Shown piece after piece: positions 56 to 18,505 of a stretch of DNA of 64,000 bases. Numbering within the stretch: position 1 is the stretch's first letter; each line of letters opens with the position of its first letter. The DNA comes from Candidatus Poribacteria bacterium (GTDB taxonomy: Bacteria > Poribacteria > WGA-4E > PCPOR2b): NCBI GenBank assembly GCA_965116925.1, contig OZ220744.1:4352001-4416000 (forward strand). The letters are read 5' to 3'. The position numbers and the translations under genes are program-made. A model generated the notes under the pieces. The model made no database searches and was not told the origin of the DNA. It saw only the letters and a program-made list of their open reading frames with translations.

Positions 56-3000
56 TCAGGCTGATGCTATGAATGCTTTCCGCAGAAACCGTCCCGTATG
101 AGATTCCTCTGTAGCCATGATCTCCTCTGGTGTCCCCATGGCGACGACTTTCCCACCTTCAGCCCCGCCATCGGGACCTAGATCAATGATCCAATCGGCG
201 GATTTGATCACGTCCATGTTGTGTTCAATGATGACAATTGTGTTGCCTTTGTCTACCAAGCGGTTGAGTACCATCAGTAGCTTCTGTACATCATCGAAAT
301 GTAAACCTGTTGTCGGCTCGTCCATGATGTAGATAGTTTTACCGGTGCTCCGCTTTGAGAGCTCACGCGCCAGCTTGACCCGTTGAGATTCACCGCCAGA
401 GAGTGTTGTCGCCGCCTGACCGAGTTCAATGTAATCCAACCCAACGTCGTACAGCATCTGCAGCGGTCTATAGATAGTCGGTATGCTTTGGAAATGTTCT
501 AGTGCTTCCTGCACTGTCATCGCCAGAATATCAGCGATGTTTTTGCCCTTGTAGCGGATTTGTAACGTTTCGTGGTTATAGCCGGTTCCCCCACAGGTTT
601 CACATTTTACCCACACATCCGCGAGAAAGTGCATTTCAACCTTATTGAAGCCGTGCCCACGACATGTTTCGCACTGTCCTGTTTTCTGATTGAAGCTGAA
701 TCGACGGGAATCGAAACCGTGGACCTTAGCGTCCGGCAGATCGGCGAAGAGGTAGCGGATTTTGGTGAATAGGTCGGTGTAGGTGGCAGGATTTGACCGT
801 GGGGTATCCCCTATTGGCTGTTGATCGATGTTAATCACTTTGTCGAGATATTCCAACCCATAAATCGATCGATACTTTCCTGCCCGCATCCGCGTTCGGT
901 TCAGATTAGACACAAGCACAGGATACAGCGTCTCCTCAATCAATGAGCTCTTTCCTGAACCGGACACCCCCGTTACGCATGTCAGTGTCCCCAACGGGAT
1001 CTCGACATCAATATTCTGCAAGTTATTGGTTCGGACGCCTATCATCTCAATCCATTCGCCTTTGCCCTGACGTCTTTGCGGCGGGACTTCAATCTTGAGT
1101 TTCCCTGTGAGATAGCCACCCGTCAACGAATTTTCGCTCTGCTGGATTTCAGTCGGCGAACCGGCGGCGACAATCTCACCGCCAAACTTTCCTGCGCGGG
1201 GACCAAAATCGAGAATGTGATCCGATGCCAACATAGTTTCCAGGTCATGTTCAACAACTAGGACACTGTTACCGAGATCTCGAAGTCCTTTCAATGCGTT
1301 CAAGAGTCGTTCCTGATCTCGCTGGTGTAGTCCGATACTCGGTTCATCGAGGATGTACGTCACTCCTGTGAGTCCGCTGCCCAGTTGGCTTGCCAGACGG
1401 ATGCGCTGCATCTCTCCGCCTGAGAGACTAGGGGCGGGTCGATCTAGCGTCAGGTAGTGCAATCCAATATCGACGAGGAATCGGAGTCGTTGTTGGATCT
1501 CTTTGAGCAGTGTTCCGCCGATTTCCATCTGATGTGTTGATAGATCGAGGTGTTCAAAGAAGTCGGCAGTCCTACCAATCGGCATCGCTGTCGCTTCGGC
1601 GATGGTTTCCCCGCCCAACGTTACGCCTCTTGCTAGGGGTTGAATGCGCGTGCCCTCGCACTCCTGACAGGTATACAAACGTTGCCCGATTGTTCCAATA
1701 CCTTCGCACGCCGGACATTGACCGATAGAGCTGTTGAATGAGAAGTGACGGGGTGTCAGTTCAGGGAAACTCAAACCGCACGGGACACAGGCGAAGTGCT
1801 CGCTGAAGACATGATGTGTAATCTCCGATCTTCTACCCGCTCGCTTCCCTTCATTTATCACTCCCACCGCTACGGTGCCACCGCTCTGCTGTGTTGCTGT
1901 TTCAACCGCTTCTGCTAGGCGTCCCCGTTCATCGGGTTCAAGGGCGAGGCGATCGACGACAATTTTGACATCGTGTCGGATACTCTTTCCAATCTTCGGT
2001 GCCCGATCAATCGGGTGAACCTCCCCGTCAATTTCGACGCGAGCGTAGCCATCACGCTGTAAGCGCTGGAAAGCATCGGGATAATCCTCATTAGGTCGCA
2101 GCACCAGAGGGGACAAGACGTAAAGCCGAGCCCCACCTGCCAATGCCACGATTTTGTCAACGATTTGCTGTACGGATTGAACGCTGATTTCCGACCCGCA
2201 TTGCGGGCAGTGAGCCGTTCCGACTCGTGCATAAAGCACACGCAGATAGTCGTAAATTTCTGTGACTGTCCCGACCGTAGACCGTGGGTTTTTACTCGGA
2301 GCCTTCTGCTCAATCGCAATTGCTGGCGAGAGTCCCTCAATCTTCTCAACTTTTGGCTTCTCTAACTGTCCTAAAAATTGTCGTGCATACGCTGAAAGGG
2401 ATTCGACGTAGCGTCGTTGTCCTTCTGCATAGATTGTGTCCAATGCCAGCGACGATTTCCCAGAACCACTCACACCGGTGAATGTTGTGAACTTCCGGTG
2501 AGGAATATCTACGTTGATGTGCTTCAGATTGTGTTCATGCGCTCCGTGCACGGAGATGTATTTGGCATCTTCGGGCAGGTCATTACTCTGGGCAAGTTGA
2601 TAATTCCCTTCTGACTCATGAAGTTGGTTGGCAGGTTGGAAGATTGGAAGATTGGAAGATTGAGAGATTACCTTCCCAGCCTTCCCCCCTTCTCTCCTTT
2701 TCGGCTCTAGCACTGGTTGCAAAGCTATCCCTGTATACGATTCCTCAACGGCTGCTACCTCTTCCGGTGTCCCTGTTGCAACAACATAGCCCCCCTCTTC
2801 ACCCCCTTCGGGACCGAGGTCAATAAGATAGTCCGCTGTTTTTACTACCTCCAAGTTGTGCTCAATAACAATAACGGTATTACCCACACCGACAAGTTGG
2901 TGCAACACCTCTAGAAGTTTTTTCACATCGTCGAAGTGCAACCCGGTTGTTGGTTCATCGAGAATATAGAGGGTTTTGCCTGTGTTACGTTTAGCAAGCT

Positions 3001-5593
3001 CCCGTGCCAGTTTAATCCGTTGCGCTTCGCCACCAGAGAGCGTCGGTGCTGGCTGCCCAAGTTTTATGTAGTCCAAACCGACATCGTGCAGGGTTTGCAA
3101 AATCTTCGCAATTTTCGGAATGTTCACAAAGTGTTCTAACGCTTCTTGCACATCCATGTTGAGCACATCGGAAATATTGGCTCCCCGGTATTCAACTTGT
3201 AGCGTTTCGTCATTGTACCGTTTTCCTTGACAAATATTGCACTTTACCCAGACATCAGCGATGAAGTGCATTTCGATCCGCTTTGAGCCGTTGCCGTCGC
3301 AGGCTTCGCACCGACCACCCTTGACATTGAAACTGAAACGCCCCGGTTTATAACCACGCAGTTTCGCCTCAGCCATATCAGCGTAAAGCGCGCGGATCTG
3401 ATCAAACACTTTGGTGTATGTGGCAGGATTTGATCTCGGGGTGCGCCCAATCGGTGACTGATCAATGTCAATCACTTTATCGATGACTTCGTCAATTGGA
3501 GCTGAAGATGCACATTGTGTATGATCGCTCGAAGATTTTTCCTCTGTAGTGAACACCCGTATGAGATCATATTCTCCCGGTTGTGCATGTGCCTTCATCA
3601 GGTCGCGGGCAAGTGCTTCGTATAGAATATCGTTGATGAGCGAACTTTTGCCGGATCCACTGACACCGGTCACGCAGGTAAAAACTCCGAGTGGAACTCG
3701 CACATCAATATCTTTGAGGTTGTTGTGACGCGCGCCACAGACCTCGATCCATTGACTGCCAGTTGCACGACGTTCAATGGGAATTTCGATCTGTTGTTCC
3801 CCACGGAGATATTGTGCTGTCAGGGAGGTTGAATCCTTGGCAATCTCTTGCGGTGTGCCGATTGCCGCGATCTCACCGCCCTTGATTCCGGGTCCCGGTC
3901 CGAAGTCAACGATCATATCTCCCGCCCACATTGTATCTTCGTCATGTTCGACAACGATTACGGTGTTGCCTTGGTCTCGGAGATGCTTGAGCGTCGTGAG
4001 AAGGTGCTGATTATCGCGCGGATGCAAGCCGATACTCGGCTCGTCGAGGACGTAAACTACCCCTCGCAAGCCCGCTCCGATTTGACTGGCTAACCGAATC
4101 CGTTGCGATTCGCCGCCGGAAAGTGTGGGTGCGGTCCGATCTAAGGTGAGGTAGTGCAGCCCAACATTCATCAAGAACCAGAGGCGTCCCTGAATCTCTT
4201 TCAGCAGATCAGTCGCAATGAACGTCTCACGCTCCGGTAGTTGGAGTTTTTCAAAGAACTTGGAACAATCCCCTACTGCCATCTCAACGACATCAAGGAT
4301 GGATTGTCCGTCGATTGTCACGGCCTTGACCTCTGGCTTGAGTCGTGTCCCGTTGCAATCTGAGCATGTGCCGGACACCATGTATTTTCCGTAGTAACGT
4401 TTCACAAGTTCTGAGGTCGCTTGGAAATACTTCCGTTCTTCGGGGGGAATCACGCCTTCAAATGCGGCTTGGTATTTGTAGTGGCGATTGCGGCGGGAGC
4501 GATAGACGAAAGGAATCTGCTCTTTTCCAGTGCCATAAAGGATAGCGTGTTGGTGCTCCTCGCTCAACTGTTCCCACGGTGTATCAAGGCTAAAGCCGAA
4601 GTGTGCTGCCAAACTCTCGGCGTGATGTCGCGTCTGTAGGGTGCCGAGCTGCCCCCAAAAGACAATCGCCCCTTCCCGAATTGATTGCGTTGAATCAGGG
4701 ACAACCGTATCGGGATCCATCTTCGTTAGTGTTCCGAGTCCTTTACAGGTTGGGCACATCCCCGCAGGACTGTTGAAGGAGAAGTTTCGGGGGGCAGGGG
4801 GTTCGTAGCTGATGTTGCAGTGCACGCAGGTGTAATCCACCCCGAATAAGAGATCTCCCGCGTCCGGTTCTCCTTCGACAATGTTCACAATCAGGCGGCC
4901 CTCTCCCATACGCAGCGCGGTTTCAACCGCTTCTGCAACCCGGCTGCGAACATCAGGTTTGATGACGATTCGGTCAACGACGATTTCAATGTTATGTCGC
5001 TGGTTACGGTCAAGTTGAACTTCAGCCGGCAGGTCGTAGATCTGTCCATCAATTCGGGCCCGGACAAACCCCGCCTTGAGCGCGTCCTCAAGGTGCTCAC
5101 GATACTCTCCACGACGCCCACTGACAATTGGAGCAAGGATTAAGATGCGGGTCTGCGGTGGTAGGTTGACGATTTGGTCAATAATTGCTTCTGTGGTTTG
5201 GGCGCCCACCGGCGCGCCGCACTCTAGACAGTGCGGTGTGCCCACACGCGCAAACAGGACGCGCAGATAGTCATAAATCTCTGTGATCGTTGCGACCGTT
5301 GAGCGTGGGTTGTTCCCGCCTGACTTCTGATCAATCGAGATGGATGGGGAGAGACCACCGATGAAGTCAACGTCGGGTTTTTCCAATTGTCCAAGGAATT
5401 GGCGGGCGTAAGCGGAGAGCGATTCGATGTAGCGGCGTTGGCCTTCAGCGTAGACTGTATCGAATGCTAGCGATGATTTTCCGGAACCGCTGACACCGGT
5501 GAAAACGATGAGGTTGTCTTTAGGGAGTTTGAGATCGATGTTTCTGAGATTATGTTCGCGTGCGCCGCGGATATCAATGAATTCTTCCGGCAT
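56..5593 (-). CDS. uvrA: Excinuclease ABC subunit A, double-length (two UvrA units in one chain)
   Basis: Four Walker A motifs (GVSGSGKSS), four LSGGE signatures, two YAEGQRRY motifs, CxxC zinc fingers. Start placed at MPEEF (5593); the open frame extends to 5698. Confidence 0.95.
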
Positions 5594-5790
5594 AGATTTT
5601 CCTTTGGCTGAAGATCTCTCCGTAATTATAGGCGATTCGATTTGGATCGAGTAATCGATGAGTCCCATTTTACCATAGATCCGAGGTGTCAGCAACACCG
5701 TTTTTCATGGTAATTGGAAGGACTAGTCGCGGCCGGTGGGCAGCCAATCAAATAAGTCCAAAGACATATATTTGTAATTCCATGAGGTTT

Positions 5791-5819
5791 AATATAGCAC
5801 ATATACGTTAAGTGGTCAA
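5791..5819 (-). promoter_or_regulatory. Putative sigma70 promoter for uvrA
   Basis: Minus strand TTGACC-N17-TATATT with TGn extended -10. Confidence 0.5.
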
Positions 5820-5837
5820 TACAAAATTGGTCACTAA

Positions 5838-7159
5838 TAGGGTCATTTAGTTTTTCCCGTTGATTAAGTTAAAAGCGTGTAGTGGGTGTGCGGCGCAATA
5901 GCGCATTGTTTGTGTGATACTATTGTATCCAGCAAATCGCAACACCGCTAGTGCGGTATTGCGCAAAGCACTCATTACCTGCGGAATCACACCGGAGCGC
6001 ACTTGAGAGGCATCTTCGCCTAAAACCACATCACGCACCCAATGAGACTGATTTTCAATGGTCCAATGTCCGCGTCGCAAAGTGAGTAAGTCCTTTGCTG
6101 ATGCCTCGGTTGGAGTTAGACTCGTTATCCCGTATTGGGTCTTTTGCTTCACTTGACCGGTTGATATGTCAATCCGTTCGTAACAACACTCAAACACTTG
6201 CTCAACTCCAGGCCACTGTATGTAATCGTTCAGTGCGGTACTTGCTGTCAACGTTCGTGTCTCAATGCGCCCATGGCTTTTTTCAACGGTTTGATAGGTA
6301 TCAAGCGTTTGGTTCAATTCGGTGTGCATCTGCTGAAGCGCGTTGTCAGTCGGTTGAGTTGCACTTATATCTGTCGGTGGGTCAAACAAACAGCGAATAT
6401 CGTGATGTAACTGTTTGTGATTCAATCCCACCGGCACCACATAATCGGCGTCCAAAGCACATACTTTTTGACAAAAGTCACGCTGTGTCAGCAGCGCATC
6501 CGTCGTTACGATTTTGCCTTTGACGTCAAAGGCGGAAAGTATCTCAGTGGAGATAGGGATTTCATTGGTTTTGGTATCGACTGCCTTTTGGGTAATCGTT
6601 ACCCCCAGTTGATGACTGACGACCGAGAGCAGATGGCTCACTGAGGCGTTTTGCTTGGCACTGCCACGAAGCGTTTTGCCATCAATAGCCACAGCCATTG
6701 AGCCTGACGCACCGGACACGCTTTGAAGGGTTTGAGTCACCCATTGGCTCAACACTGCCTCCAACTTGCCGATGTCCAATCGCTTAAACAGGTTATGTAA
6801 CGTCGCCGCACAAGGCGTTTGAGCGCGCGTAAAGCCAAGGGCTTGGATTAACGCAGGTGAATAGGTACGTCCCCATTGGGCTATCGCACTATAACTCCGA
6901 TACCCACACATGATTGCAATCACCGACAAGGCAAGAATCGCACACAAAGGGTGCCGCTTCCCTTTGGCGTTGCGGGGATCCGTAACTTCTGCTAAAATAT
7001 CTATCAAGTGACCAGACTTTGTTTGGGTCATATTTCACCTCAAAGGTTGTGGGAGATTTTTAAGGTGAAGTATAGCAAGTGCGGCATCAAATGTCACGCC
7101 GCACTTTCACTAAAAACATGGACATACACAAACAAAAGGCCGAAAACTAAATGACCCTA
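5838..7159 (-). mobile_element. Complete ISAs1-family insertion sequence (1322 bp)
   Basis: Perfect 17-bp TIRs TAGGGTCATTTAGTTTT (5838-5854; reverse complement at 7143-7159), flanked by the 9-bp direct repeat GGTCACTAA (5829-5837, 7160-7168). Confidence 0.95.
5847..7031 (-). CDS. ISAs1 family (H-repeat) DDE transposase
   Basis: DPR..GKRH, AIDGKTLRGS, KTNEIP, TTDALLTQ, HGRIETR, RGHWTIEN..HWVRDVVLGED motifs. Confidence 0.95.
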   Translation of the reverse strand: MTQTKSGHLIDILAEVTDPRNAKGKRHPLCAILALSVIAIMCGYRSYSAIAQWGRTYSPALIQALGFTRAQTPCAATLHNLFKRLDIGKLEAVLSQWVTQTLQSVSGASGSMAVAIDGKTLRGSAKQNASVSHLLSVVSHQLGVTITQKAVDTKTNEIPISTEILSAFDVKGKIVTTDALLTQRDFCQKVCALDADYVVPVGLNHKQLHHDIRCLFDPPTDISATQPTDNALQQMHTELNQTLDTYQTVEKSHGRIETRTLTASTALNDYIQWPGVEQVFECCYERIDISTGQVKQKTQYGITSLTPTEASAKDLLTLRRGHWTIENQSHWVRDVVLGEDASQVRSGVIPQVMSALRNTALAVLRFAGYNSITQTMRYCAAHPLHAFNLINGKN

Positions 7160-7166
7160 GGTCACT

Positions 7167-7198
7167 AAAAAACCTTGTCCCGATTATGCGAGACAAGG
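7167..7198 (-). terminator. Probable intrinsic terminator of the mfd-foldase-lptD cluster
   Basis: CCTTGTC...GACAAGG hairpin followed on the minus strand by a T6 run. Confidence 0.6.
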
Positions 7199-7339
7199 CG
7201 TTATATTATGGCGTATCTCGGTGATTATGTTACGCAAACTCTTGATTCCTGAGTGAAAAAAGGAGAGCATCTCTCAAGAGACACGAGGGATCACCGCTAA
7301 GCCGGAGAATTAGTCGTTTTTCGCACTGCGGGTTTGGCA

Positions 7340-10300
7340 TTAGAAGTAAGAGCGTCCAAGTGAGTTTCCAACCCCGAAGGAGTCGTAAGGAACGCCAGCG
7401 GGCAGGGTGCGGAATCCCCACGTGTCTGTTGTGGCATCATAGCCAACTCCGACTGAAGCGGCGGGTTCTGCAATCAGGTTAATCTGAAAGGTGAAGTCTT
7501 GTCGTACATTATCGAAGGGAGGTTCTCGCTTAATCCCGATGCGGTGCCATCGAATCGTCATGTTCCAATTGTGCAAGTTTCGCCGTAGCATTATACTTTG
7601 CGAGTAGAACTGTTTTTCGATCCAGTCATAATTGACACTAAGGTTCAATTCAAGTAATTGGCTTGGACGAAATCGAAAGCTACCTGTGAGACTTCGAGAG
7701 GCGTATTGCGTCCTTTTGGTAAAGGAATTTCCGAACGATATATTCCATTTATCGCGGCGATAACTGACGTTGGACCGGAAACCAACCTGTTTGAGTCGTT
7801 TTCCATCGAGGCGCGATTCGTTCGGGTCATGTGTCGACCTGAACGTGATATTCAGGTTTCGGCTCGCTAGCGGAACTATCGTCATTCTACTTTCAATCGG
7901 TACATATCGACGTTCACCCAACGCCTCAAATTTGGTGAAATCCGCTGCGATTCGTGTGCTAAAATTAAGCACGCGGAGTGCAGATCTACTGCCACGGGTT
8001 TTAACCTCAATACTGGTATCGAAGTTATAGGCGAGGTTTTTTCGTTCAAAGAAGTAGACACTAGGACCAAAAGGATAGAGTTGGGGAGCATCTTCTCTGT
8101 CAACAGGCGGTGAGTAATCAAATGATACCCTTGAGTTGATTTGGTGGCGCATCCGACGCGCCCCCGGAATGAAACTGATGTCATAGATCCGAAACAGCAG
8201 GTTGCTGGCAGACAACCGCGTACTGTATATACCCCGAAAAATATTCGGATTTCCCTCTCGGTCTTTGTCATGCCAGATGAGGTTTGTGTCGAGATCCGCG
8301 TCGAAGCGCAATTCTCGATTCGGCATTATTTGCAGTACCGACTGCTTACGAAGATCAAAACCGAGATCCATGGTTTGCAAGTAGACATCCTCTTCGTCTC
8401 GAAACCGTTCACGGAAAAAATTACCGAGATTCACATCTAAGTCAAAACTGGTGCTCTCAAGTGTTGGAAAAGCGAACATCGAAAGAATTGGGAGATCTGT
8501 GTGCAGCGCATCAGCAACCTTGGTTAGCCTAGAATTAATAGTTTTGAAAACAGGCAGCCGATCTAAACGCATACGTGAGAGCGCAAGTTCGAGTACAGGT
8601 AATTTTTGCAAGTTTGTTGTTCCTTCGCCGGTGAAGTCTAAAGTATGATTAACCTGTAGTCGTCCCAAGAACTCCCCGATTGTCTTGCTTGAAAATCTTA
8701 GGTTTCCCTCCTCATCTCTATCTTCCTGATCCAGTGCAGAATAGGAGGTTCCCCATGTGAGCACACCAAAAGAATTAACCATAGATTCATTGATTCCAAA
8801 TCCCTCCTCTTCAAAATCTTTTGCTCGCCACGCGACACGTCCCACAAAACTCACGGGTCGTCGTTGCCTCACTCGGTTATCCCAAGGGGTATAGAAGGTG
8901 TGCCGGTGCCCCCACCGCATATTCCATCGTCTCCCAGTTTTGAATGGCTGTCGGCGATCGAAAGAAAATTCATCATTGGTATAGAAGTAAAAGTCTCCCC
9001 TATAAGTTCGTCTTTTATCGATCTTAATTAGACGATACCCTTTACGGGTCTTGATTATTCCGGTATGCTCACCGCTATAGAGTCGCTGGGCTTGTGTGTA
9101 GATTACGGTCGGCATCTCCCAGCGCCCCCGGTAATCGTATTGTTGGTAGATCTGCACCTTCTCCGATTCTTCTGAGGGATCTACCACTTCACCGTCCCCA
9201 ATTTGATCGGGGTTCAAAGGAATTTGTGCACTATCTTCTGGTGTGCCTATATGGCTCTGCGCTTCCATTCTTTCCTCGTGCCCATTTATCTCTTTATCAC
9301 CCTGTCCCTCCGTTCCTTCTTCCAACTGTTCAATTCCAGTTTCTTCTGTCGGTGCAGCTTTCCCGAATTGCGCTTCCATCACCGCCCACTCCGCTTCAAA
9401 TTGACGTGCAATTTCTTCAAAGGTCGGGGTCGGCTCCCTTTCGATTAACTCAAGGATATAGACGCCTCGCTCGGTATTTATGGGCCAGGTTACCTCTCCA
9501 GGGCCCTCTAGTCGGGTTACAGGGTGTTTCCAACGTCGATCCATTTCATTCAACAGAAACCCTGCGCCTTCATTGGCTTCAGACAGTTCAACTCCCTCAT
9601 ATTGCCCTACTAACTCTTGGAGAACCTCCCCTGCTTCTGCGCGCTCTTGAATTTCCTTAGCGGTGGTTTGGATTGCGTTACGGGTCTCCTCGCTTGGTTC
9701 AATTGCTATATCAATTCGACGGATCTGGAGTTCTCGTTCACCATATACATCAAGCACACGATCAACCATTAAAATGTGGAAACCAGATTCCGTTCTCAGA
9801 ATCGGCGTGATTTCGCCGGGTTCTAGTTGAAAGACTGCCTCTTCAAGGATAGGATCCAGCCGCAGTTCATCTTCCTCATCGCGCTCTCCGCGCACCAAAA
9901 ATCCCATGTCGCCCCCCTGATAGCGCGTGTCCTGATCGGTCGAGTCAGCTTTTGCAATCTCTGCAAAGTCCCCGTTTGCTTCCTGTAGTTGGGCATGGAT
10001 GTTTTCTACCTTTTCACGAGCAGCGGCGATATCTTCTTCAGAGATTTGATATTCCAGAAACAGTTGTCGCAGCTTATACCGGTCATACTCGCCCTCCAGC
10101 CGATCCGCTAACTCCTGTGCTTTTTCCTCTAGTTTCGTCCGTTCACTTGGCGTTGCATTGGGAGGAATAGGTACAATGATTTCTTGGAACTTGGCATCAT
10201 TTACACGGTATTTGCCGTCAGCACCGAGCCCACTTCCTCGACGAGCAGAATGATCAAACAGCAGGGCACTGTCATATCGAAATCGGCGTGCAAGTGGCAA

Positions 10301-11314
10301 AATTACGCTCAGGAATACCCCCTGATAGCTACTTGTTCCGATTTTGACGATTACCTTGGCGACTTTGTCTTCTTGGCGAAGATCGCGACGGTAGGCGGGA
10401 AAATAGAAGAGGGGAACACCACCAACTCTCAGAACAATATTCTTGGCGATCAACTCTCTGTTTATCCTGACGATAATCTGCGATGCACTGAAGTAATAAT
10501 GGGGATGCTTGAGAGAGCATGTTGTCAAAGCCCCACCCCGGATGTAAGACTCATCATCTTCAATCTTAAAGATTTCGGTGCCGCGGTAGTACCACGGGTC
10601 GCTGAAACTGAATCCCTCGCGAATAATTCCTTTTTTTGTTTCAATGTTGTAAAGGAGCTCGTTTGCATAGGTTTCTTCGTTTCCGACGAGAAGATGCACG
10701 TTTCCCGATGCCCGCATCATATTTTCATCGAAATCCGCCCAGATATGATCTGCGTAGAGCACAACCTCGTCGTATTTGATCAGTCCGTTGCCGTGAATCT
10801 GAATCAGGTTCTCGTGAAAGGTAAGATTGTCGCCTTTTGCAAGCAGGTCTCCTGCTTCAGGTAACATATTCTCTGGATCGAGTTTTCGACTGGCTTGGGT
10901 GGGTTCTTCAGGTGTAGGTGAACCTGCCGCTGGTGGGGTTTCTGACGTTTCTTCAGGAGGTTCTGTGGGTGGTTCTCCATCGTTGGGCACTTCGGGAGCA
11001 GGTGGATCTTCAGCTGTCGAAGTTTCTGATGACACCTCAGCCTGTTCGTCCGAAGCCGTTTGCTCGGCAGCGGGAGCAGGGTCGGTTTGGGCGGCTAATT
11101 CGCCCGCGGACAAAATTAAATTAAGCGTGAGAATCGTAGGTAATAGGAGATGAAGGGTAAAACGATATACCCAGGGAGCAAGACGTGAAACGTAAAGTAC
11201 GTCCCCCCAAAAACGATCAAGGGATCGGAAACAAGGTAGGTTGGGCAACCGGGGGTTTGATTTCTTCCCGTTGCCTACTGTTTTCTGCCAGTTCCGTTTT
11301 TCCCTCCTTGCCAT
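7340..11314 (-). CDS. lptD: LptD-like LPS-assembly outer-membrane protein with inserted parvulin (PpiC) domains
   Basis: Signal-like hydrophobic stretch, Pro/Glu linker, OstA-like jellyroll (ASGNV, TTC, GVPLFYFP), amphipathic beta-strand C-terminal half. Internal parvulin motif FAEIAK..S.D....GGDMG...GFHIL. RBS AGAGGAAAGG. Confidence 0.8.
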   Translation of the reverse strand: MARREKRNWQKTVGNGKKSNPRLPNLPCFRSLDRFWGDVLYVSRLAPWVYRFTLHLLLPTILTLNLILSAGELAAQTDPAPAAEQTASDEQAEVSSETSTAEDPPAPEVPNDGEPPTEPPEETSETPPAAGSPTPEEPTQASRKLDPENMLPEAGDLLAKGDNLTFHENLIQIHGNGLIKYDEVVLYADHIWADFDENMMRASGNVHLLVGNEETYANELLYNIETKKGIIREGFSFSDPWYYRGTEIFKIEDDESYIRGGALTTCSLKHPHYYFSASQIIVRINRELIAKNIVLRVGGVPLFYFPAYRRDLRQEDKVAKVIVKIGTSSYQGVFLSVILPLARRFRYDSALLFDHSARRGSGLGADGKYRVNDAKFQEIIVPIPPNATPSERTKLEEKAQELADRLEGEYDRYKLRQLFLEYQISEEDIAAAREKVENIHAQLQEANGDFAEIAKADSTDQDTRYQGGDMGFLVRGERDEEDELRLDPILEEAVFQLEPGEITPILRTESGFHILMVDRVLDVYGERELQIRRIDIAIEPSEETRNAIQTTAKEIQERAEAGEVLQELVGQYEGVELSEANEGAGFLLNEMDRRWKHPVTRLEGPGEVTWPINTERGVYILELIEREPTPTFEEIARQFEAEWAVMEAQFGKAAPTEETGIEQLEEGTEGQGDKEINGHEERMEAQSHIGTPEDSAQIPLNPDQIGDGEVVDPSEESEKVQIYQQYDYRGRWEMPTVIYTQAQRLYSGEHTGIIKTRKGYRLIKIDKRRTYRGDFYFYTNDEFSFDRRQPFKTGRRWNMRWGHRHTFYTPWDNRVRQRRPVSFVGRVAWRAKDFEEEGFGINESMVNSFGVLTWGTSYSALDQEDRDEEGNLRFSSKTIGEFLGRLQVNHTLDFTGEGTTNLQKLPVLELALSRMRLDRLPVFKTINSRLTKVADALHTDLPILSMFAFPTLESTSFDLDVNLGNFFRERFRDEEDVYLQTMDLGFDLRKQSVLQIMPNRELRFDADLDTNLIWHDKDREGNPNIFRGIYSTRLSASNLLFRIYDISFIPGARRMRHQINSRVSFDYSPPVDREDAPQLYPFGPSVYFFERKNLAYNFDTSIEVKTRGSRSALRVLNFSTRIAADFTKFEALGERRYVPIESRMTIVPLASRNLNITFRSTHDPNESRLDGKRLKQVGFRSNVSYRRDKWNISFGNSFTKRTQYASRSLTGSFRFRPSQLLELNLSVNYDWIEKQFYSQSIMLRRNLHNWNMTIRWHRIGIKREPPFDNVRQDFTFQINLIAEPAASVGVGYDATTDTWGFRTLPAGVPYDSFGVGNSLGRSYF

Positions 11315-11443
11315 ACTACCTTTCCTCTGCTACACTGCAAAATCGAGTCATCGAGAGCAGTAGAACTTATCCGAGAATCGCCTCCCTCTGCTTCAGTTTT
11401 CACTGTCAGTCAAGCGATTCTGATAGGAGGGTACAGCTTACTC

Positions 11444-12742
11444 CTATTTAAGTTCCTCTTTGATTTTTATAAAGGAATTTTCCTTGAGCAGATCCGTGTA
11501 AATTTGCCATTCCTCTTGGAATTTTTGCTGACGCAGCATCATCCGAATCTGGTCTTTTTCAGCGTCGCCCAATTCAGGAGCCGTGCGACTATCGATCTTG
11601 AAAATATGCACGCCATACGTTGTTTTAAGGGGCGTGCTATGTGCTCCGATGGAAAGTCCTTCGATAATTTTTCGGGTTTCGGGATTTAACTCGCTGAGCG
11701 AACGAATCCCGAGATCACCACTATTAGCTTTCGTCTGCGAATCGTCGGAGTATTGTTGTGCAAGCGCGTTGAAATCTTCACCTTGATTTAACCGCTGCAA
11801 GAGGCTATCTGCACGTTCATAAGCAGCTTCAATCGCTTGCTCACTCGGCTTCAAACTGACAACGAGATGACGAAACGCTATGGTCTGATCATCTTTACGT
11901 TCAACTTTGAAAAGGTAAAACCCATCATTGCCTTCAACCGGTTCACTGATCCCGCCGGTGTTGAGCCCTGAAAGTGTATTGCGGAAGGTAGCTGAAAGGT
12001 TGTCCATCTCTGCAATCGGCAGTTCGTTTAATGCCCCAATCCCTGCTTGTCTATACTCATCGTCAGCATAACGTTGCGCGAGTTCCTCAAAATTTTTTCC
12101 AGCCGCTAATTCCTGACGAATTGTATCGATCTTCTCAAGGGCTAGCTTGCGGTCTGACTCGCTTGGCTTGAAAGCGACGAAGATGTGTCGAAGATGGACT
12201 CTGTCTGTCTTAGTTGGCAATTGCGAGCGGTTTTCTTCAAAAAACTTCTGTATGTCCGAACCTCGAATTTGGAGTCTAGGGAGGATACGTTGCATGACAA
12301 GTCGTTCCGCCATCAGGTTACGTTTAGCTTGTTCACGGAAAGACATCAGGGTGTACCCCTCCTTTTTTAACGCTTGAGCAAGTTCCTCTTCAGTCTCAAT
12401 CTTGTACTGATCCTTGAAGTTTTGCATATACTGCTCCACTTCAGCCTCAGTGATTTCAATTTTTAGCGTTAATGCTGTTTCGACGAGAAGCATTTGGCGA
12501 ATCAACTGATCGAGGAGTGCAGCCCGTTCCTGTTCCGCCTTTTCCATCGCTTCGCGCTCACTGAACCGGTAGACTTGCTGCAGTTCTACTGCTTTTTGCT
12601 TCACAACACTGTCGAGCTCCCATTTGGTGATCACATCTTCGTTGACATAAGCGATGATCTGATCAAATCTTCGTGCAGCAACGGGATTGATTCCAAAATG
12701 AAGGATCAATAGAGCTAGGACGCAAAAACGCAATATCTTCAT
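11444..12742 (-). CDS. surA: SurA-like periplasmic chaperone / peptidyl-prolyl isomerase (two parvulin domains)
   Basis: Signal peptide, DQIIAYVNEDVIT SurA N-domain, two PpiC domains (RHIFV; FNALAQQYSDD...GDLG...GVHIF); adjacent to lptD. Confidence 0.8.
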   Translation of the reverse strand: MKILRFCVLALLILHFGINPVAARRFDQIIAYVNEDVITKWELDSVVKQKAVELQQVYRFSEREAMEKAEQERAALLDQLIRQMLLVETALTLKIEITEAEVEQYMQNFKDQYKIETEEELAQALKKEGYTLMSFREQAKRNLMAERLVMQRILPRLQIRGSDIQKFFEENRSQLPTKTDRVHLRHIFVAFKPSESDRKLALEKIDTIRQELAAGKNFEELAQRYADDEYRQAGIGALNELPIAEMDNLSATFRNTLSGLNTGGISEPVEGNDGFYLFKVERKDDQTIAFRHLVVSLKPSEQAIEAAYERADSLLQRLNQGEDFNALAQQYSDDSQTKANSGDLGIRSLSELNPETRKIIEGLSIGAHSTPLKTTYGVHIFKIDSRTAPELGDAEKDQIRMMLRQQKFQEEWQIYTDLLKENSFIKIKEELK

Positions 12743-12778
12743 TTAGAGGTATGCCTCCTTAATTCAAGGTTCGACGTT

Positions 12779-13822
12779 TTACGGTTCTGTTTCAGGTTCG
12801 GTGGGGGTGTCACCATCATCAGGCGATTCGCTTTCCCCTTCCGCTTCAGCAGGAGCGTCACCATCATCAGACGATTCGCTTCCCCCTTCCTCTTCGACCT
12901 CCTCCGGTGCATCGGGGATTCGATCTGAAAAGGTCTTGACCTTCGCCTGTTCGTGGAGTCGGATCAGCCAATCAGTCATAAGTTCTTCGCGTTTCTGATT
13001 CTCTACGTGTCTTTCCACATTGCGTCGTACACTTTGTTCTTCAAGCGTTTGTTGGCGTGCTGGCTGGGCTTCCTCCTTACGGAATATTAGGTAATAGTTT
13101 TCCCCGTCGAGTTCAATGTGGAGAATCTCTTCGTTCATTTGACCGACTTCCAGTTCAAACGCCGCATCGCTAAACGGTTTTGCGCGCCGCGAATACATCG
13201 TGTTATCGAAAAAGTCGGTGTCACCGGGGATTTCGTTATTTGATCCAGGACCGATTAATTCCCCGTTTGCGGATAATTCTGTAGCGAGGGCAGCGATGTC
13301 TTCCCCATCTTTAATTCGTTGAAAAATTTCTTTTGCTCGTTCCTCATTCATGAGGGTTATGCAGGTCAGCCGCACCTGTTCCAGCTCAACATAGTCTTCC
13401 TTATTTTCTTCATAATAAAGCTGGTAATCTTCCTCAGTTGGTTTAAGTTTCTGATCCACTTCGATATCTGTGATCTTATCAACGAGCAGTTCGTGGTAAT
13501 AGTCCTGCACTTTTTTAAGCACCGTAGGATCCTCGTCAAGTTTCCGATCCTTGGCGAGACAAAGTATGAGACGGCTTTCTGCCATTAGGTTCATGTATTC
13601 CTCATACCCGCCCTCTGCTTCTTGGTACTGTGGTTGTTTATACGAAGGGAGTTCACTTATCTCTTGTAGCATCTCCTCAAGCGTTATGTGGTGTTTTCCA
13701 TTCCATTCAAATTCAGCGATCACAGTGCCCTCAGCTCCGGCTTTTCCGCCACAACCATTCAACGAAACGCTAACAGCAACGGCACCAATTAAGATAAAGC
13801 TAATAATTCCCAATAATTTCAC
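12779..13822 (-). CDS. PrsA/PpiC-type foldase, probable lipoprotein
   Basis: Lipobox-like LNGC, YYEENK motif, parvulin-like core, acidic tail; GTG start with GGAGG RBS. Confidence 0.75.
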   Translation of the reverse strand: MKLLGIISFILIGAVAVSVSLNGCGGKAGAEGTVIAEFEWNGKHHITLEEMLQEISELPSYKQPQYQEAEGGYEEYMNLMAESRLILCLAKDRKLDEDPTVLKKVQDYYHELLVDKITDIEVDQKLKPTEEDYQLYYEENKEDYVELEQVRLTCITLMNEERAKEIFQRIKDGEDIAALATELSANGELIGPGSNNEIPGDTDFFDNTMYSRRAKPFSDAAFELEVGQMNEEILHIELDGENYYLIFRKEEAQPARQQTLEEQSVRRNVERHVENQKREELMTDWLIRLHEQAKVKTFSDRIPDAPEEVEEEGGSESSDDGDAPAEAEGESESPDDGDTPTEPETEP

Positions 13823-13926: not shown

Positions 13927-14889
13927 CTACTGCTCCGATTTCTCGTTTTCTGGATCTTCTTCCTCTTCGGGCATCACAGGTGGAGGGAGCAGTTCTGGAT
14001 ACGTTTTGAGTTTGCCCTCGGCAGTAAGCATTTCCAACCATTTTAGGATACGCTTCCGCTTCATCTCACGTTTTAGGGGATACTCAAGCCTTGGCTTGAC
14101 CTCTTCAAAGGTCTGCTGGCGCTCTGGCTGATGTTCTTCCTTTCGGAAAATCATATAATAGGTATCTTCCTCAACGTCTTGTTCAAAAACCTCATCAGTC
14201 ATTTCGCCGACCTCCATTGCAAAAACCGCGTCAACGAATGCTTGGGCTCGTGCAGAAACGTCTCGGGCAAAGAAGCCTGTATCACCGGGATCTCCCGGAT
14301 TTGAACCAGGTCCTGTCAATACCCCTTTTTCCGAAAGTTCTTTTACTGCATCAAAGATGTCCTTACCGGCTTGAATCTCCTCCAGTGTGGTCTGTGCGAG
14401 TTCTTTATCGAATACCGTGATGCAGGTTGCCCGCACTTTTTCCTCATCAACATACGTATCTTTATTTTCTTCGTAATACTGCCGAAGTGTTTCCTCGGTG
14501 ATGGCAATTTTTTCATCGACCTCAATTTCGGTCAAGCGTTCAACCATCAACTGATGCTTATAATCGTCCGCTTTTTTAAGGAACTCCTCATTTTTGTCGA
14601 ATCCTACCTCAGCAGCTGCGAGGAGCATTAGCCTTTGGTTGATGAGGTCTTCCAGAAATATGAGTTTACCAGCTTTGGACTGATAGCCCTTCTGTTTATA
14701 TTCTGATAGTGCTGCTATTTCCGCATTAAGTGTTGCAAGCGAAATTTCGTGTATGCCGTTCCATTCGTACCGCGCCACAATAATCTGGCTCTCATCCATT
14801 GGGCCGGCTACATCTTGCGATTGGACAATCTGCCAACTGCTTAAACCGATTGCCGCCGTCACGACGAAAATTATCAACTTTTTTTTCAT
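13927..14889 (-). CDS. PrsA/PpiC-type foldase, paralog of 12779-13822
   Basis: Signal peptide; shares EWNG.H.I, YYEENK, TCIT, GPGSN..PGDT and YY.IFRKEE motifs with its neighbour. Confidence 0.75.
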   Translation of the reverse strand: MKKKLIIFVVTAAIGLSSWQIVQSQDVAGPMDESQIIVARYEWNGIHEISLATLNAEIAALSEYKQKGYQSKAGKLIFLEDLINQRLMLLAAAEVGFDKNEEFLKKADDYKHQLMVERLTEIEVDEKIAITEETLRQYYEENKDTYVDEEKVRATCITVFDKELAQTTLEEIQAGKDIFDAVKELSEKGVLTGPGSNPGDPGDTGFFARDVSARAQAFVDAVFAMEVGEMTDEVFEQDVEEDTYYMIFRKEEHQPERQQTFEEVKPRLEYPLKREMKRKRILKWLEMLTAEGKLKTYPELLPPPVMPEEEEDPENEKSEQ

Positions 14890-15016: not shown

Positions 15017-18000
15017 TCACATTAGTTTCCCTAAAACACGCTTGAGCTCAAACAAGAGAGCCTTTCCCTCCAATCCTTTCAAACGGATCGTCATACGTAC
15101 AGGGGGAGTAATTGAGATTCGCCGATCCTGCTCAATCAGCCGAATTAGCTTGCGGGGATCAAGGCTTGTTTTGGTTTCATCAAATGTGACCTTAATGCTT
15201 TCCTCGCCTGCGGCGATTCCATCAACCCCAAGCTGTTGACTGAGTTGTTTTAAGTCGGCTATTTCGAGGAGCATCTCAACAGGTTCGGGAATCTTGCCAT
15301 ACCGGTCGACCATCTCCTCTTCAAGTTCTTTCCGATCTACTACCGTTTCTAGGGCAGCGATCTTTTTATAAAGTGCGACCTTCTGCCTGCCGTCGGGGAC
15401 ATATTCATCAGGCAGATAGGCTTCAATGGGAAGGTTAATCCGGGTTTCGACCGTTTCTTCGACCTTCTCACCCTTGAGTTTTTGTACCGCTTCCTCAAGA
15501 AGTTTGCAGTACATGTCGTAACCCACGGCGATGATATGACCGTGCTGCTCTGAACCGAGAATATTGCCTGTTCCCCGAATTTCAAGGTCGCGGAGGGCAA
15601 TCTTAAACCCGGAACCGAGGTCAGTGAATTCTTCAATGACGCGTAGACGTTTTTGAGCACCTTCTGTAATTGCCCATCCTTGCGGGTAGAACAGATAGCC
15701 GTAAGCCTGATACTGATCGCGCCCGACTCGTCCGCGTAGCTGGTAAAGTTGGGCTAACCCAAACGCGTCTGCACGATTGATCAGAATCGTGTTGACGGTT
15801 GGAATATCTACGCCAGACTCAATAATCATGGTGCAAACCAGAACGTCATGTTTGTGGTTGACGAATTCCATCATCACTTTTTCGAGTTGACGTTCAGGCA
15901 TTTGCCCGTGTGCCATACAGACTCTAGCGTGCGGCACGAGATCTTGGATTGTGGCAGCAATGCTTGCGATACTCTGGACACGGTTGTGCACAAAAAAGAT
16001 CTGTCCACCCCGTTCCATCTCTCGCAAGATCGCATCTCGAACCACATCGGGATTATACTCCATGACGTAAGTTTCAATTGGCAGGCGATTTTCCGGGGGC
16101 GTATTGATTACGCTGAAGTCGCGGATGCCGACGAGGGACATATGAAGTGTACGCGGAATCGGTGTTGCTGTCAAGGTTAATACGTCAACCGTCTGCTTCA
16201 TCTGTTTAATCTTCTCTTTGTGCTTCACCCCGAAACGATGTTCCTCGTCAACGACGAGCAAACCGAGTTCCCGGAACTTAATATTTTTTGAGAGCAAGGC
16301 GTGGGTGCCGATAACGATATCAACTGTGCCATTTGCCAATCCCTCTACAACCCTTTTTGCTTCTTTATCCGTTCGGAAGCGATTCAACATTTCTACCTGA
16401 ACAGGAAAAGGGGCAAAACGCTGTTGGAATGTATTAAAATGTTGCAACGTGAGAATTGTTGTCGGGGCAAGCAGGGCGACCTGTTTTCCTGCCATCACCG
16501 ATTTGAACGCCGCACGGAGTGCTACTTCGGTCTTTCCGTATCCGACATCTCCGCAGATTAGCCGATCCATGGGTCGGAGGCGTTCCATGTCCTGTTTGAC
16601 CTCTTCGATTGCTTTCTGCTGGTCCGGAGTTTCTTCATAAGGGAACAGTACCTCAAACTCTTTCTGCCAAGGCGTATCTGTTGGGAAGGCATAACCCTCA
16701 CGAGATTCACGAATCGCATACAATTCCAGTAATTCCTCTGCCATCTGCTCTATGGAGGCTTTGGCTTTGGCTTTGACCCGTTCCCATGACGTTCCGCCGA
16801 GTTTGTCTAGACGTACCCTTCCCTCCTCTTGGCCGCCAATATACTTCTGCACGAAGTCAATTTGATAGGTCGGCACATATAACCTACCTGCGTCTGCATA
16901 GTCTAGTGCGAGGAAGTCCTGCGGTTTCCCATCAATGTCGAGGCGGCGAATCCCTGCGTAACGACCGATTCCGTGTGAGACATGCACCACATAATCCTTT
17001 TCCTTGAGGTCAATTAAACTCAGGATAGGAGTGCCTTCCTTAAAAGTGGTCTTGCGGTGCCGACGATGCTCGCGTCCAAACAACTCATCTTCAGATAGTG
17101 TGATGAGCTTGAGCGTTTCGCTGATAAATCCTTCGCTGATGCTACCAATATTCACTGCCGTCTGGGTTACAGGTAAATCCCTATCTGCTAAAATATCGTG
17201 TAGCCGATCTGTGCTCTTTAGGTTATCACAGAAGAAGTTGACGAAATAGCCCTCGTCGGTCCACCCTTTGATCTGATCCATAATCATCTGATAATTGCTG
17301 CGTGGAAGACCGAGCGGACGCATACCGAACGCAATCTCTTCAACCGGTTCCTCTGTATTGAGTGTTGGCGGAGTCAACGAGGTGCGAACGAAGGGACAGG
17401 TCTGCAAATCAGAGATTACCCGTTCAAACGACACAAACGTCTCATTGGGTGACACCATAAACTGATCAAATGCTAGTTTTCGTTCATAAAGATCTTTCGT
17501 ATTTTCAATAAGTTGAGTCGCCTCACGCGCCATCCAAGCAGACTCAATCATGAGAACCACAGTCTGCGGGGATAGATAATCCATGAGGGTACTACTATCT
17601 TCGTATAACATCGGAAGTAAGGCTTCTAGCCCTTCCGGATTTGTCTCTGTTTCGAGGCGGTGCGTAATCTCGTTGACTGCGTTTCGATACTTGGGCGATT
17701 CGTTGTTTTGAATCAGTGTTTCTGCTCGAATTTTCCATAGATTGAGGGTTTCGGGGGACAGGATGATTTCTCGAACTGGACACAGCGTAATTGCTTCGGT
17801 GTCGTCATCAATTCCATCGGGAACAGAGCGTTGTGAAGCCGGATCAAACAACCGAATAGCGTCGATTTCGTCGCCGAAGAACTCAATCCGGATGGGCGCA
17901 TCGGTAGTCAACGGGTAAACGTCGAGTATGTCACCACGACGCGCTAATTCGCCCTTGGCCTCTACGAGATCTACGTGCTGATAACCGTTGTGCAGCAGTT

Positions 18001-18505
18001 GGTCAACCACTTTGTCGGGGGCAATCTCATCGCCGATGCGGAGGGTCAGGAAGGCAGATTCTACAACGGATTGGGGCAGAATCTTATGCATCAGCGCCTG
18101 GATCGATGTAACAATGAACGTGCGGTCTCCCTGCAACAGCTGATACAAACAGATTAGCCGCTCTGCGACAACATTTTTTGTTGGGGAAATACCGTCATAA
18201 AGGAAATTTTGCCATTGCGGAAAGAGATAGGGATCTTCAAAATGATAGGCGGGTAGATCTTGGATGATTTTCTCGGCTTCGTGCTGCGTGGGCACAACAA
18301 CGAGAAACGATTTGTCGGCGAAATCGGCTGCCAATGCACTGAGCAGGTAAGCAGTAGACGCGCCATGCAGACCGCGTAACCACGGTTTGGGACGATCTAT
18401 TTGCTGATTTAACGAGGTTGGGGCACACTCCCCCCCTGAAAACTGAGCGGTCAGGGTTTCAACAAGCGATTGATAGGTATTTGACTGCTGCAGAAGATCT
18501 ATCAC
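15017..18505 (-). CDS. mfd: Transcription-repair coupling factor
   Basis: RGDILDVYP UvrB-like module, CarD-like domain, GDVGYGKTEVA, DEEHRFG, TATPIPRT, QLRGRVGR, TRCF C-terminus. Confidence 0.97.
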   Translation of the reverse strand: MIDLLQQSNTYQSLVETLTAQFSGGECAPTSLNQQIDRPKPWLRGLHGASTAYLLSALAADFADKSFLVVVPTQHEAEKIIQDLPAYHFEDPYLFPQWQNFLYDGISPTKNVVAERLICLYQLLQGDRTFIVTSIQALMHKILPQSVVESAFLTLRIGDEIAPDKVVDQLLHNGYQHVDLVEAKGELARRGDILDVYPLTTDAPIRIEFFGDEIDAIRLFDPASQRSVPDGIDDDTEAITLCPVREIILSPETLNLWKIRAETLIQNNESPKYRNAVNEITHRLETETNPEGLEALLPMLYEDSSTLMDYLSPQTVVLMIESAWMAREATQLIENTKDLYERKLAFDQFMVSPNETFVSFERVISDLQTCPFVRTSLTPPTLNTEEPVEEIAFGMRPLGLPRSNYQMIMDQIKGWTDEGYFVNFFCDNLKSTDRLHDILADRDLPVTQTAVNIGSISEGFISETLKLITLSEDELFGREHRRHRKTTFKEGTPILSLIDLKEKDYVVHVSHGIGRYAGIRRLDIDGKPQDFLALDYADAGRLYVPTYQIDFVQKYIGGQEEGRVRLDKLGGTSWERVKAKAKASIEQMAEELLELYAIRESREGYAFPTDTPWQKEFEVLFPYEETPDQQKAIEEVKQDMERLRPMDRLICGDVGYGKTEVALRAAFKSVMAGKQVALLAPTTILTLQHFNTFQQRFAPFPVQVEMLNRFRTDKEAKRVVEGLANGTVDIVIGTHALLSKNIKFRELGLLVVDEEHRFGVKHKEKIKQMKQTVDVLTLTATPIPRTLHMSLVGIRDFSVINTPPENRLPIETYVMEYNPDVVRDAILREMERGGQIFFVHNRVQSIASIAATIQDLVPHARVCMAHGQMPERQLEKVMMEFVNHKHDVLVCTMIIESGVDIPTVNTILINRADAFGLAQLYQLRGRVGRDQYQAYGYLFYPQGWAITEGAQKRLRVIEEFTDLGSGFKIALRDLEIRGTGNILGSEQHGHIIAVGYDMYCKLLEEAVQKLKGEKVEETVETRINLPIEAYLPDEYVPDGRQKVALYKKIAALETVVDRKELEEEMVDRYGKIPEPVEMLLEIADLKQLSQQLGVDGIAAGEESIKVTFDETKTSLDPRKLIRLIEQDRRISITPPVRMTIRLKGLEGKALLFELKRVLGKLM

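Follow-up and report, generated by a model that had tools for sequence, protein, structure and literature searches.

Analysis of a 64,000-nucleotide stretch of DNA from a Candidatus Poribacteria bacterium (the window: assembly GCA_965116925.1, contig OZ220744.1, positions 4,352,001 to 4,416,000, forward strand) indicates that the minus-strand gene at window positions 7340-11314 encodes LptD, the lipopolysaccharide (LPS) translocon, with three parvulin domains inserted into its beta-barrel. LptD with inserted parvulins is real and phylum-wide. The design appears to be new to the literature that we found, and its function is predicted only.

Identity of the gene and architecture of the insert

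The original prediction, made from the sequence alone, had named the product of this gene (P0001) as LptD-like, and structure prediction bears this out. The open reading frame (ORF) starts at an ATG preceded by a purine-rich ribosome-binding site. An AlphaFold model of residues 149-1324, based on a 148-row alignment, reached a mean predicted local distance difference test score (pLDDT) of 85.7 and a predicted template modelling score (pTM) of 0.71, with pLDDT below 50 solely at an acidic linker and the C-terminal tail. The model comprises a jellyroll and a 26-strand barrel (strands counted from the DSSP list of the model), and its C-terminal half takes the barrel form that had been predicted. 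Foldseek placed LptD structures on top, with 4q35 the best (E 2.6e-21); VIA aligned 619 residues of the model (6-1168) to LptD 9kn3 (Z 19.5, root-mean-square deviation (rmsd) 5.3), and the jellyroll superposed on LptA 2r1a (Z 13.1, rmsd 2.0, 112 residues aligned). Furthermore, hhalign of P0001 against E. coli LptD gave a probability of 99.6, with homology on both flanks of the insert. NCBIfam LptD models match residues 160-379 under their cut-offs (E 9e-7 and 6e-4), and Pfam Rotamase matches within residues 410-520 (E 2e-30). These results identify P0001 as the cell's LptD, and it would be expected to bind LptE and to transport LPS through its barrel. The parts of the gene are as follows.

7340-11314, minus: lptD with inserted parvulin module, 1324-amino-acid (aa) ORF; model fold matches LptD
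11090-11314, minus: signal peptide with long basic n-region, residues 1-75; most hydrophobic 19-mer from residue 52
10865-11089, minus: Pro/Glu-rich variable linker, residues 76-150 (from sequence)
10355-10864, minus: beta-jellyroll (beta-taco), residues 151-320, with a lone C266 (model against LptA 2r1a)
10202-10354, minus: barrel beta1-beta4, residues 321-371 (model and profile alignment)
10091-10201, minus: parvulin A N-half (beta1-alpha1), residues 372-408; its beta1 extends barrel beta4 (model strand 212-234)
9974-10090, minus: parvulin B N-half, residues 409-447 (structural alignment to SurA P1, 2pv1)
9626-9973, minus: parvulin X, circularly permuted (alpha2 to beta4, hairpin, beta1, alpha1), residues 448-563; hairpin at model 363-389; a unit of this kind also stands by itself in class-2 proteins
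9434-9625, minus: parvulin B C-half, residues 564-627 (structural alignment to SurA P1, 2pv1)
9368-9433, minus: parvulin A alpha2, residues 628-649 (model)
9155-9367, minus: acidic low-confidence linker within parvulin A, residues 650-720, 71 aa, 28% D/E (model)
9008-9154, minus: parvulin A C-half, residues 721-769; its beta4 runs into barrel beta5 (model strand 611-635)
8567-9007, minus: barrel beta5-beta10, residues 770-916 (model and profile alignment)
8456-8566, minus: residues 917-953, with a helical insertion (about 33 aa) in the beta10/beta11 turn (model); the phylum's other class carries a fourth parvulin at this site
7475-8455, minus: barrel beta11-beta26, residues 954-1280, with N1249 where most relatives have Cys (model)
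7343-7474, minus: conserved C-terminal hairpin and tail, residues 1281-1324, last residue Phe (model and alignment)

The signal peptide is probably cleaved after A75, as A75-Q76 is nearly invariant in relatives. That the helix at the beta10/beta11 turn might be a decayed parvulin half was unsupported (hhalign at most 0.1%, against 35-57% among the three true N-halves).

The insert spans residues 372-769 (nucleotides 10201-9008, 398 aa), within two nucleotides of the bounds first proposed (approximately 10201-9010). Between anchors at R358 and residue 805, 68 insert-less LptD relatives have 42-70 residues and full-length Poribacteria-type rows have 363-562 (one fragment, 302), indicating that residues 372-769 replace a short turn. 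Profile alignment matches the strand preceding the insert to the E. coli strand with W272-F276, named beta4 in excerpts of PMC6887485, and the resumed strands to E. coli beta6 onward, in agreement with the proposed beta4/beta5 site. Since even-to-odd turns lie on the same side as the beta24-beta25 turn, which is periplasmic according to the available part of PMC12644819, the beta4-beta5 turn, and with it the insert, would face the periplasm, as had been suggested.

The insert consists of three parvulins nested as A(B(X)), in Russian-doll fashion. SurA P1 (2pv1) aligns with 98 of its 103 residues across model 263-479 (rmsd 2.2), so that B would wrap X. A protein of the other class (class 2) was also modelled (pLDDT 87.3); there, single parvulins align over about 100 residues spread across model 154-486 (2pv3, rmsd 1.4), so that A would wrap B and X. 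A tandem, bead-on-string arrangement is ruled out in both models, in which single parvulins align over discontinuous ranges. In both, barrel beta4 runs unbroken into the first strand of A, and the last strand of A runs unbroken into beta5. Nesting, as modelled, is what permits 400 residues within a tight turn, and the models show it joining the module ends as one hairpin that continues into barrel strands 4 and 5. The original description of about 400 aa of parvulin-type sequence held for the fold (rmsd 1.4-2.2 to SurA P1) and needed revision to three nested domains plus a 71-aa acidic linker. Its label "SurA-like" suits the parvulin part, whose inner two domains match the neighboring surA module, and fails for the SurA core: no SurA_N match was found in P0001, and three parvulins and a linker make up the insert in the model.

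Neither a diverged paralogue with an LptD fold but no role as LPS translocon nor an assembly chimera is a credible reading of P0001; both are very improbable and have largely been refuted already. P0001 does fall below the thresholds of Pfam LptD and LptD_2 (profiles that score in only 2-3 of 14 control genomes) and is without the interdomain disulfide. Against a paralogue, however, 13 of the 14 nearest insert-less relatives scanned bear an LptD, LptD_2 or LptD_N match, a class-2 orthologue exceeds the LptD_2 cut-off (35.9 versus 22.5 bits), and the genome, 99% complete in one contig, carries lptE, lptF, lptG and lpxC; profile search, with the same low sensitivity in controls, found no second LptD in it. 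A chimera is ruled out by the whole architecture lying in a single open frame in 39 of 41 genomes, the host included (the gene is split across contigs in the other two), and by a contig from an independent run, which spans 7160-12808 with both junctions in one piece, differing at 56 letters and without gaps. Contigs from RNA libraries also span lptD, yet they cannot show transcription.

Conservation, origin and variation across the phylum

Matches were found in 121 of 121 genomes drawn from the phylum (216 weaker matches exist besides those listed), and the insert is present in all eight deep-branching genomes outside the window's order, one of them split across contigs. Named homologues (55-89% identity) belong to Candidatus Poribacteria and are annotated as "hypothetical protein" or "peptidylprolyl isomerase"; because of such labels, Poribacteria can appear to be without lptD. 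Among the best 150 matches in a library of 1.84 billion representatives, a search reaching LptD subfamilies down to about 135 bits, an LptD N-terminal part and a parvulin stretch were combined in nine, all of at least 808 bits and Poribacteria-type by similarity, and in none of the other 141. Searching for LptD-parvulin fusions at 1445-4125 aa returned no match, which carries little weight. A scan of named genomes gave back nothing besides the record of the query itself.

Across 73 full-length rows, mostly from one order, the mean majority-residue fraction was 0.62-0.75 in the insert, 0.65-0.71 in the barrel and 0.40 in the acidic linker; by this measure the insert is as conserved as the barrel. 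The linker spans 50-192 aa in the window's order and 11-12 aa in deep lineages. Most invariant positions of the insert look structural (Gly, Pro, Phe, Ala). Catalytic parvulins of the Pin1/Par10 kind carry histidines on beta1 and beta4. In P0001 the beta1 site holds E378, Q417 and R533, and a His-His pair was found in no insert domain of 76 sequences, whether paired as nested or as tandem domains. Domain X keeps part of the pocket, with S458 in 77 of 77 filled rows, T508 in 71 and H513 in 64 of 80 rows; the H513 site is Tyr or Phe in most deep lineages. The adjacent SurA keeps H186, D334 and H379 in 14, 16 and 14 of 16 full-length rows.

The two inner parvulins match the two-parvulin module of the adjoining surA (27% identity, E 1e-10), and by score the best single-stretch parvulin-only matches are Poribacteria SurA proteins. 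These scores favor a copy from the adjacent surA as the probable source. A tree built from 34 two-parvulin modules gathers the inserts into a single group (87/96) without singling out a donor.

Two lineages carry further changes. In class 2 (L054, L055 and library matches P0125 and P0126), the beta10/beta11 turn has 166-168 residues, where the median is 55 for rows of Poribacteria type and 22 for LptD without the insert, and the model shows the extra part as a well-folded, circularly permuted fourth parvulin. Its whole length aligns with X, scoring 46 bits against an X unit and 38 against SurA, with 30% identity to X of the window, and this suggests duplication within lptD. In family f5, four of four SurA proteins consist of the core only, with both parvulins cleanly missing, and the f5 LptD keeps its three parvulins.

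L054 5399-9334, minus: class-2 LptD with fourth parvulin, residues about 803-914; fourth parvulin also in L055, L061, P0125 and P0126
L058 10350-11024, minus; L059 7865-8539, plus; L060 9972-10676, minus; L057 up to 9421, plus: core-only SurA of f5, about 200-225 aa

Of the 68 insert-less relatives, 61 have a jellyroll-to-barrel Cys pair and 63 have the barrel-side Cys. The latter is also found in four of four class-2-like rows covering the site and in none of 71 rows of the window's class, and C266 of P0001 is left without a partner. The Cys pair marks the disulfide-linked type of LptD and does not define the whole family. An origin of the insert as compensation for the lost disulfide was rejected, as class 2 has both.

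The gene lies last in a minus-strand cluster of the order mfd-like gene, two PrsA/PpiC-like genes, surA and lptD.

11444-12742, minus: surA, 432 aa, SurA_N core and two parvulins, directly upstream of lptD (domain matches)
12779-13822, minus: PrsA/PpiC-like parvulin protein, 347 aa (domain matches)
13927-14889, minus: PrsA/PpiC-like parvulin protein, 320 aa (domain matches)
15017-18505, minus: mfd-like gene heading the cluster (named from translation; same position in relatives)

surA lies directly upstream of lptD in 41 of 45 loci (some genomes counted twice) and is retained in 41 of 41 genomes searched; in L056 (genome G070), lptD (4824-8138, minus) stands apart from surA, which sits on another contig. 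In f5, and likewise at two class-2 loci, the two upstream parvulin genes appear as a single ORF. In the neighboring SurA, the link that separates the two parvulins is very short, and H292 varies (5 of 16) with H186 and D334/H379 kept; these features would fit a nested parvulin pair like that of PDB 8hm4. Directly downstream of lptD lies a 394-aa DDE_Tnp_1 transposase (5847-7031, minus). Contigs of three other runs depart from the window sequence at about 7160, and the transposase element looks strain-variable. A double-length UvrA-like ORF of 1880 aa, named from its translation, occupies 56-5698 (minus).

Possible role of the parvulin module

We propose, with a probability of roughly 40%, that the insert is a non-catalytic peptide-binding or docking module, comparable to SurA P1/P2 but carried by the substrate, which aids the assembly of LptD. 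The proposal draws on the LptD fold, the continuous junction strands, the barrel-level conservation, the presence in both classes, the missing His-His pair, the adjacency of surA and the loss of SurA parvulins in f5. In E. coli, LptD depends strongly on SurA, the SurA core is the chaperone, and P1/P2 regulate the core and contact BamB/BamE (PMC3747590 and PMC13545206, as excerpted). LptD folding runs from C to N, with release of beta4 from BamA as a limiting step (excerpts of PMC6887485). In P0001, the three-parvulin module would fold first, in the periplasm, and hold beta4 and beta5 in register. It may then engage the SurA core encoded upstream and/or the machine that assembles beta-barrels (BAM), which could ease the late N-terminal steps of LptD's own assembly. 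In the finished translocon, LPS would reach the jellyroll and then pass through the 26-strand barrel. A more far-reaching version, in which docking of the SurA core on the LptD parvulins restores a whole SurA at the translocon (in f5 plainly so), with LptD doubling as a folding station for outer-membrane proteins, seems doubtful.

Several points weigh against this proposal. The module stays in the mature protein, where a post-assembly role fits the anatomy equally well. The 141 of 150 best library matches that lack the combination are mostly ordinary LptDs, showing that LptD in general does without such a module. Family f5 probably lost its SurA parvulins only once, and in E. coli a SurA core functions by itself, so this loss need not imply compensation. 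An insert of 400 folded residues could impede BAM instead of assisting it, and the conservation figures are dominated by one order.

Only slightly less likely than docking during assembly, though well short of an even chance, is a role as a platform once the translocon is mature. The module would there tether peptide-binding domains for clients or partners (unfolded outer-membrane proteins, LptE, LptA or an Omp85 protein), or take over from LptM/LptY-type lipoproteins in bracing the lateral gate on its beta1-beta5 side; these lipoproteins stabilize this gate region in E. coli (PMC12644819, in its available part). Its permanent, rigid attachment four strands from the gate is consistent with such a role, and a fourth parvulin at a second turn in class 2 suggests that selection favored more binding surface in the periplasm and not a single folding step. 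The barrel-side Cys is missing throughout the 71 rows of the window's class; class-2 proteins have both the insert and the Cys pair, however, so replacement of the disulfide is not how the insert arose. Eight Omp85-family matches in the host genome, with no full-length BamD and no BamE over the cut-off, lean weakly the same way, but the BamD/BamE profiles score in only 3-4 of 14 control genomes.

An autonomous cis-acting chaperone or active prolyl isomerase, doing the work of SurA alone, was the main idea of the original prediction and is improbable. Parvulin histidines are not always required for catalysis, the pocket residues S458, T508 and H513 of domain X are kept, the inner pair resembles the module of SurA, and the best single-stretch parvulin-only matches are Poribacteria SurA proteins. 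But none of the three domains keeps the beta1 His, H513 has given way to Tyr/Phe in most deep lineages, and every genome searched still has surA; the missing core and His-His pair together weaken a self-chaperone, and because the insert is without the core, which carries the chaperone activity in E. coli, a docking or regulatory module is the likelier of the two. Equally improbable is a tolerated passenger, that is, an ancient insertion, probably from the neighboring surA, which became structurally locked in without a specific role. Decayed catalytic residues, invariant positions that look mostly structural and the acceptance of other insertions at periplasmic turns (the 33-aa helix, acidic linkers of 50-192 aa) would suit a passenger, yet one in-frame deletion would suffice for its clean loss and none was seen in any genome examined, its conservation equals that of the barrel, and class 2 kept a second insertion.

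LptD is an essential protein that folds with difficulty and serves as an antibiotic target. That Poribacteria LptD carries a folded module of 400 residues between strands 4 and 5, with a second one between strands 10 and 11 in one class, implies that large folded domains at internal periplasmic turns are compatible with BAM-type assembly, and this constrains models that have N-terminal strands folding inside BamA. Poribacteria LptD also offers a natural test of the roles of SurA parvulins apart from the core. If the more far-reaching version above is true, Poribacteria have transferred SurA's regulatory and docking half to the client that demands most of it, and a single machine would couple the assembly of LPS with that of proteins.

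Relation to known systems

We found no description of a parvulin-bearing LptD in the open-access literature, subscription journals and supplements lying outside the search, and no Rotamase domain among the 120 listed of 549 long E. coli-like LptDs. P0001 resembles LptD of the LptDE translocon (E. coli, Shigella, Klebsiella, Neisseria; 4q35, 9kn3, 5iv9, 7omm) in its signal peptide, jellyroll and 26-strand barrel, with collinear strands on both flanks of the insert and surA adjoining in both. It differs in the 398-aa three-parvulin insert at beta4/beta5, the 33-aa helical insert at beta10/beta11 and the missing barrel-side cysteine; in addition, surA lies upstream of lptD here and downstream in E. 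coli.

The parvulin fold is common to SurA (E. coli; 1m5y, 2pv1, 2pv3), whose P1 superposes on B and A with rmsd 2.2 and 1.4, respectively. Unlike SurA, the insert has no N/C core and no His-His pair, comprises three nested rather than two tandem domains, and is covalently part of a membrane barrel. The closest precedent for nesting is the periplasmic peptidyl-prolyl isomerase (PPIase) 8hm3/8hm4, residues 174-398 of which align with 206 residues of B(X) (Z 17.3, rmsd 3.6). Because B(X) superposes on 8hm4 as one unit, the nested two-parvulin arrangement has a solved precedent. Excerpts of PMC11467351 describe the BfUbb target PPIase from Bacteroides fragilis, and the entry titles tie it to 8hm3/8hm4. 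In contrast to P0001, that protein is soluble, lies outside any barrel and has no third, outer parvulin.

A PagP domain occurs in nine of the 120 listed long LptDs (P0318, P0332, P0333, P0340, P0341, P0366, P0367, P0378 and P0389). The PagP-LptD fusions of Rhodocyclaceae (PMC8346858, in the part available) are, like P0001, a natural joining of LptD to an envelope protein in one lineage. They place two barrels end to end through a disordered loop, whereas P0001 carries a folded insertion inside the barrel.

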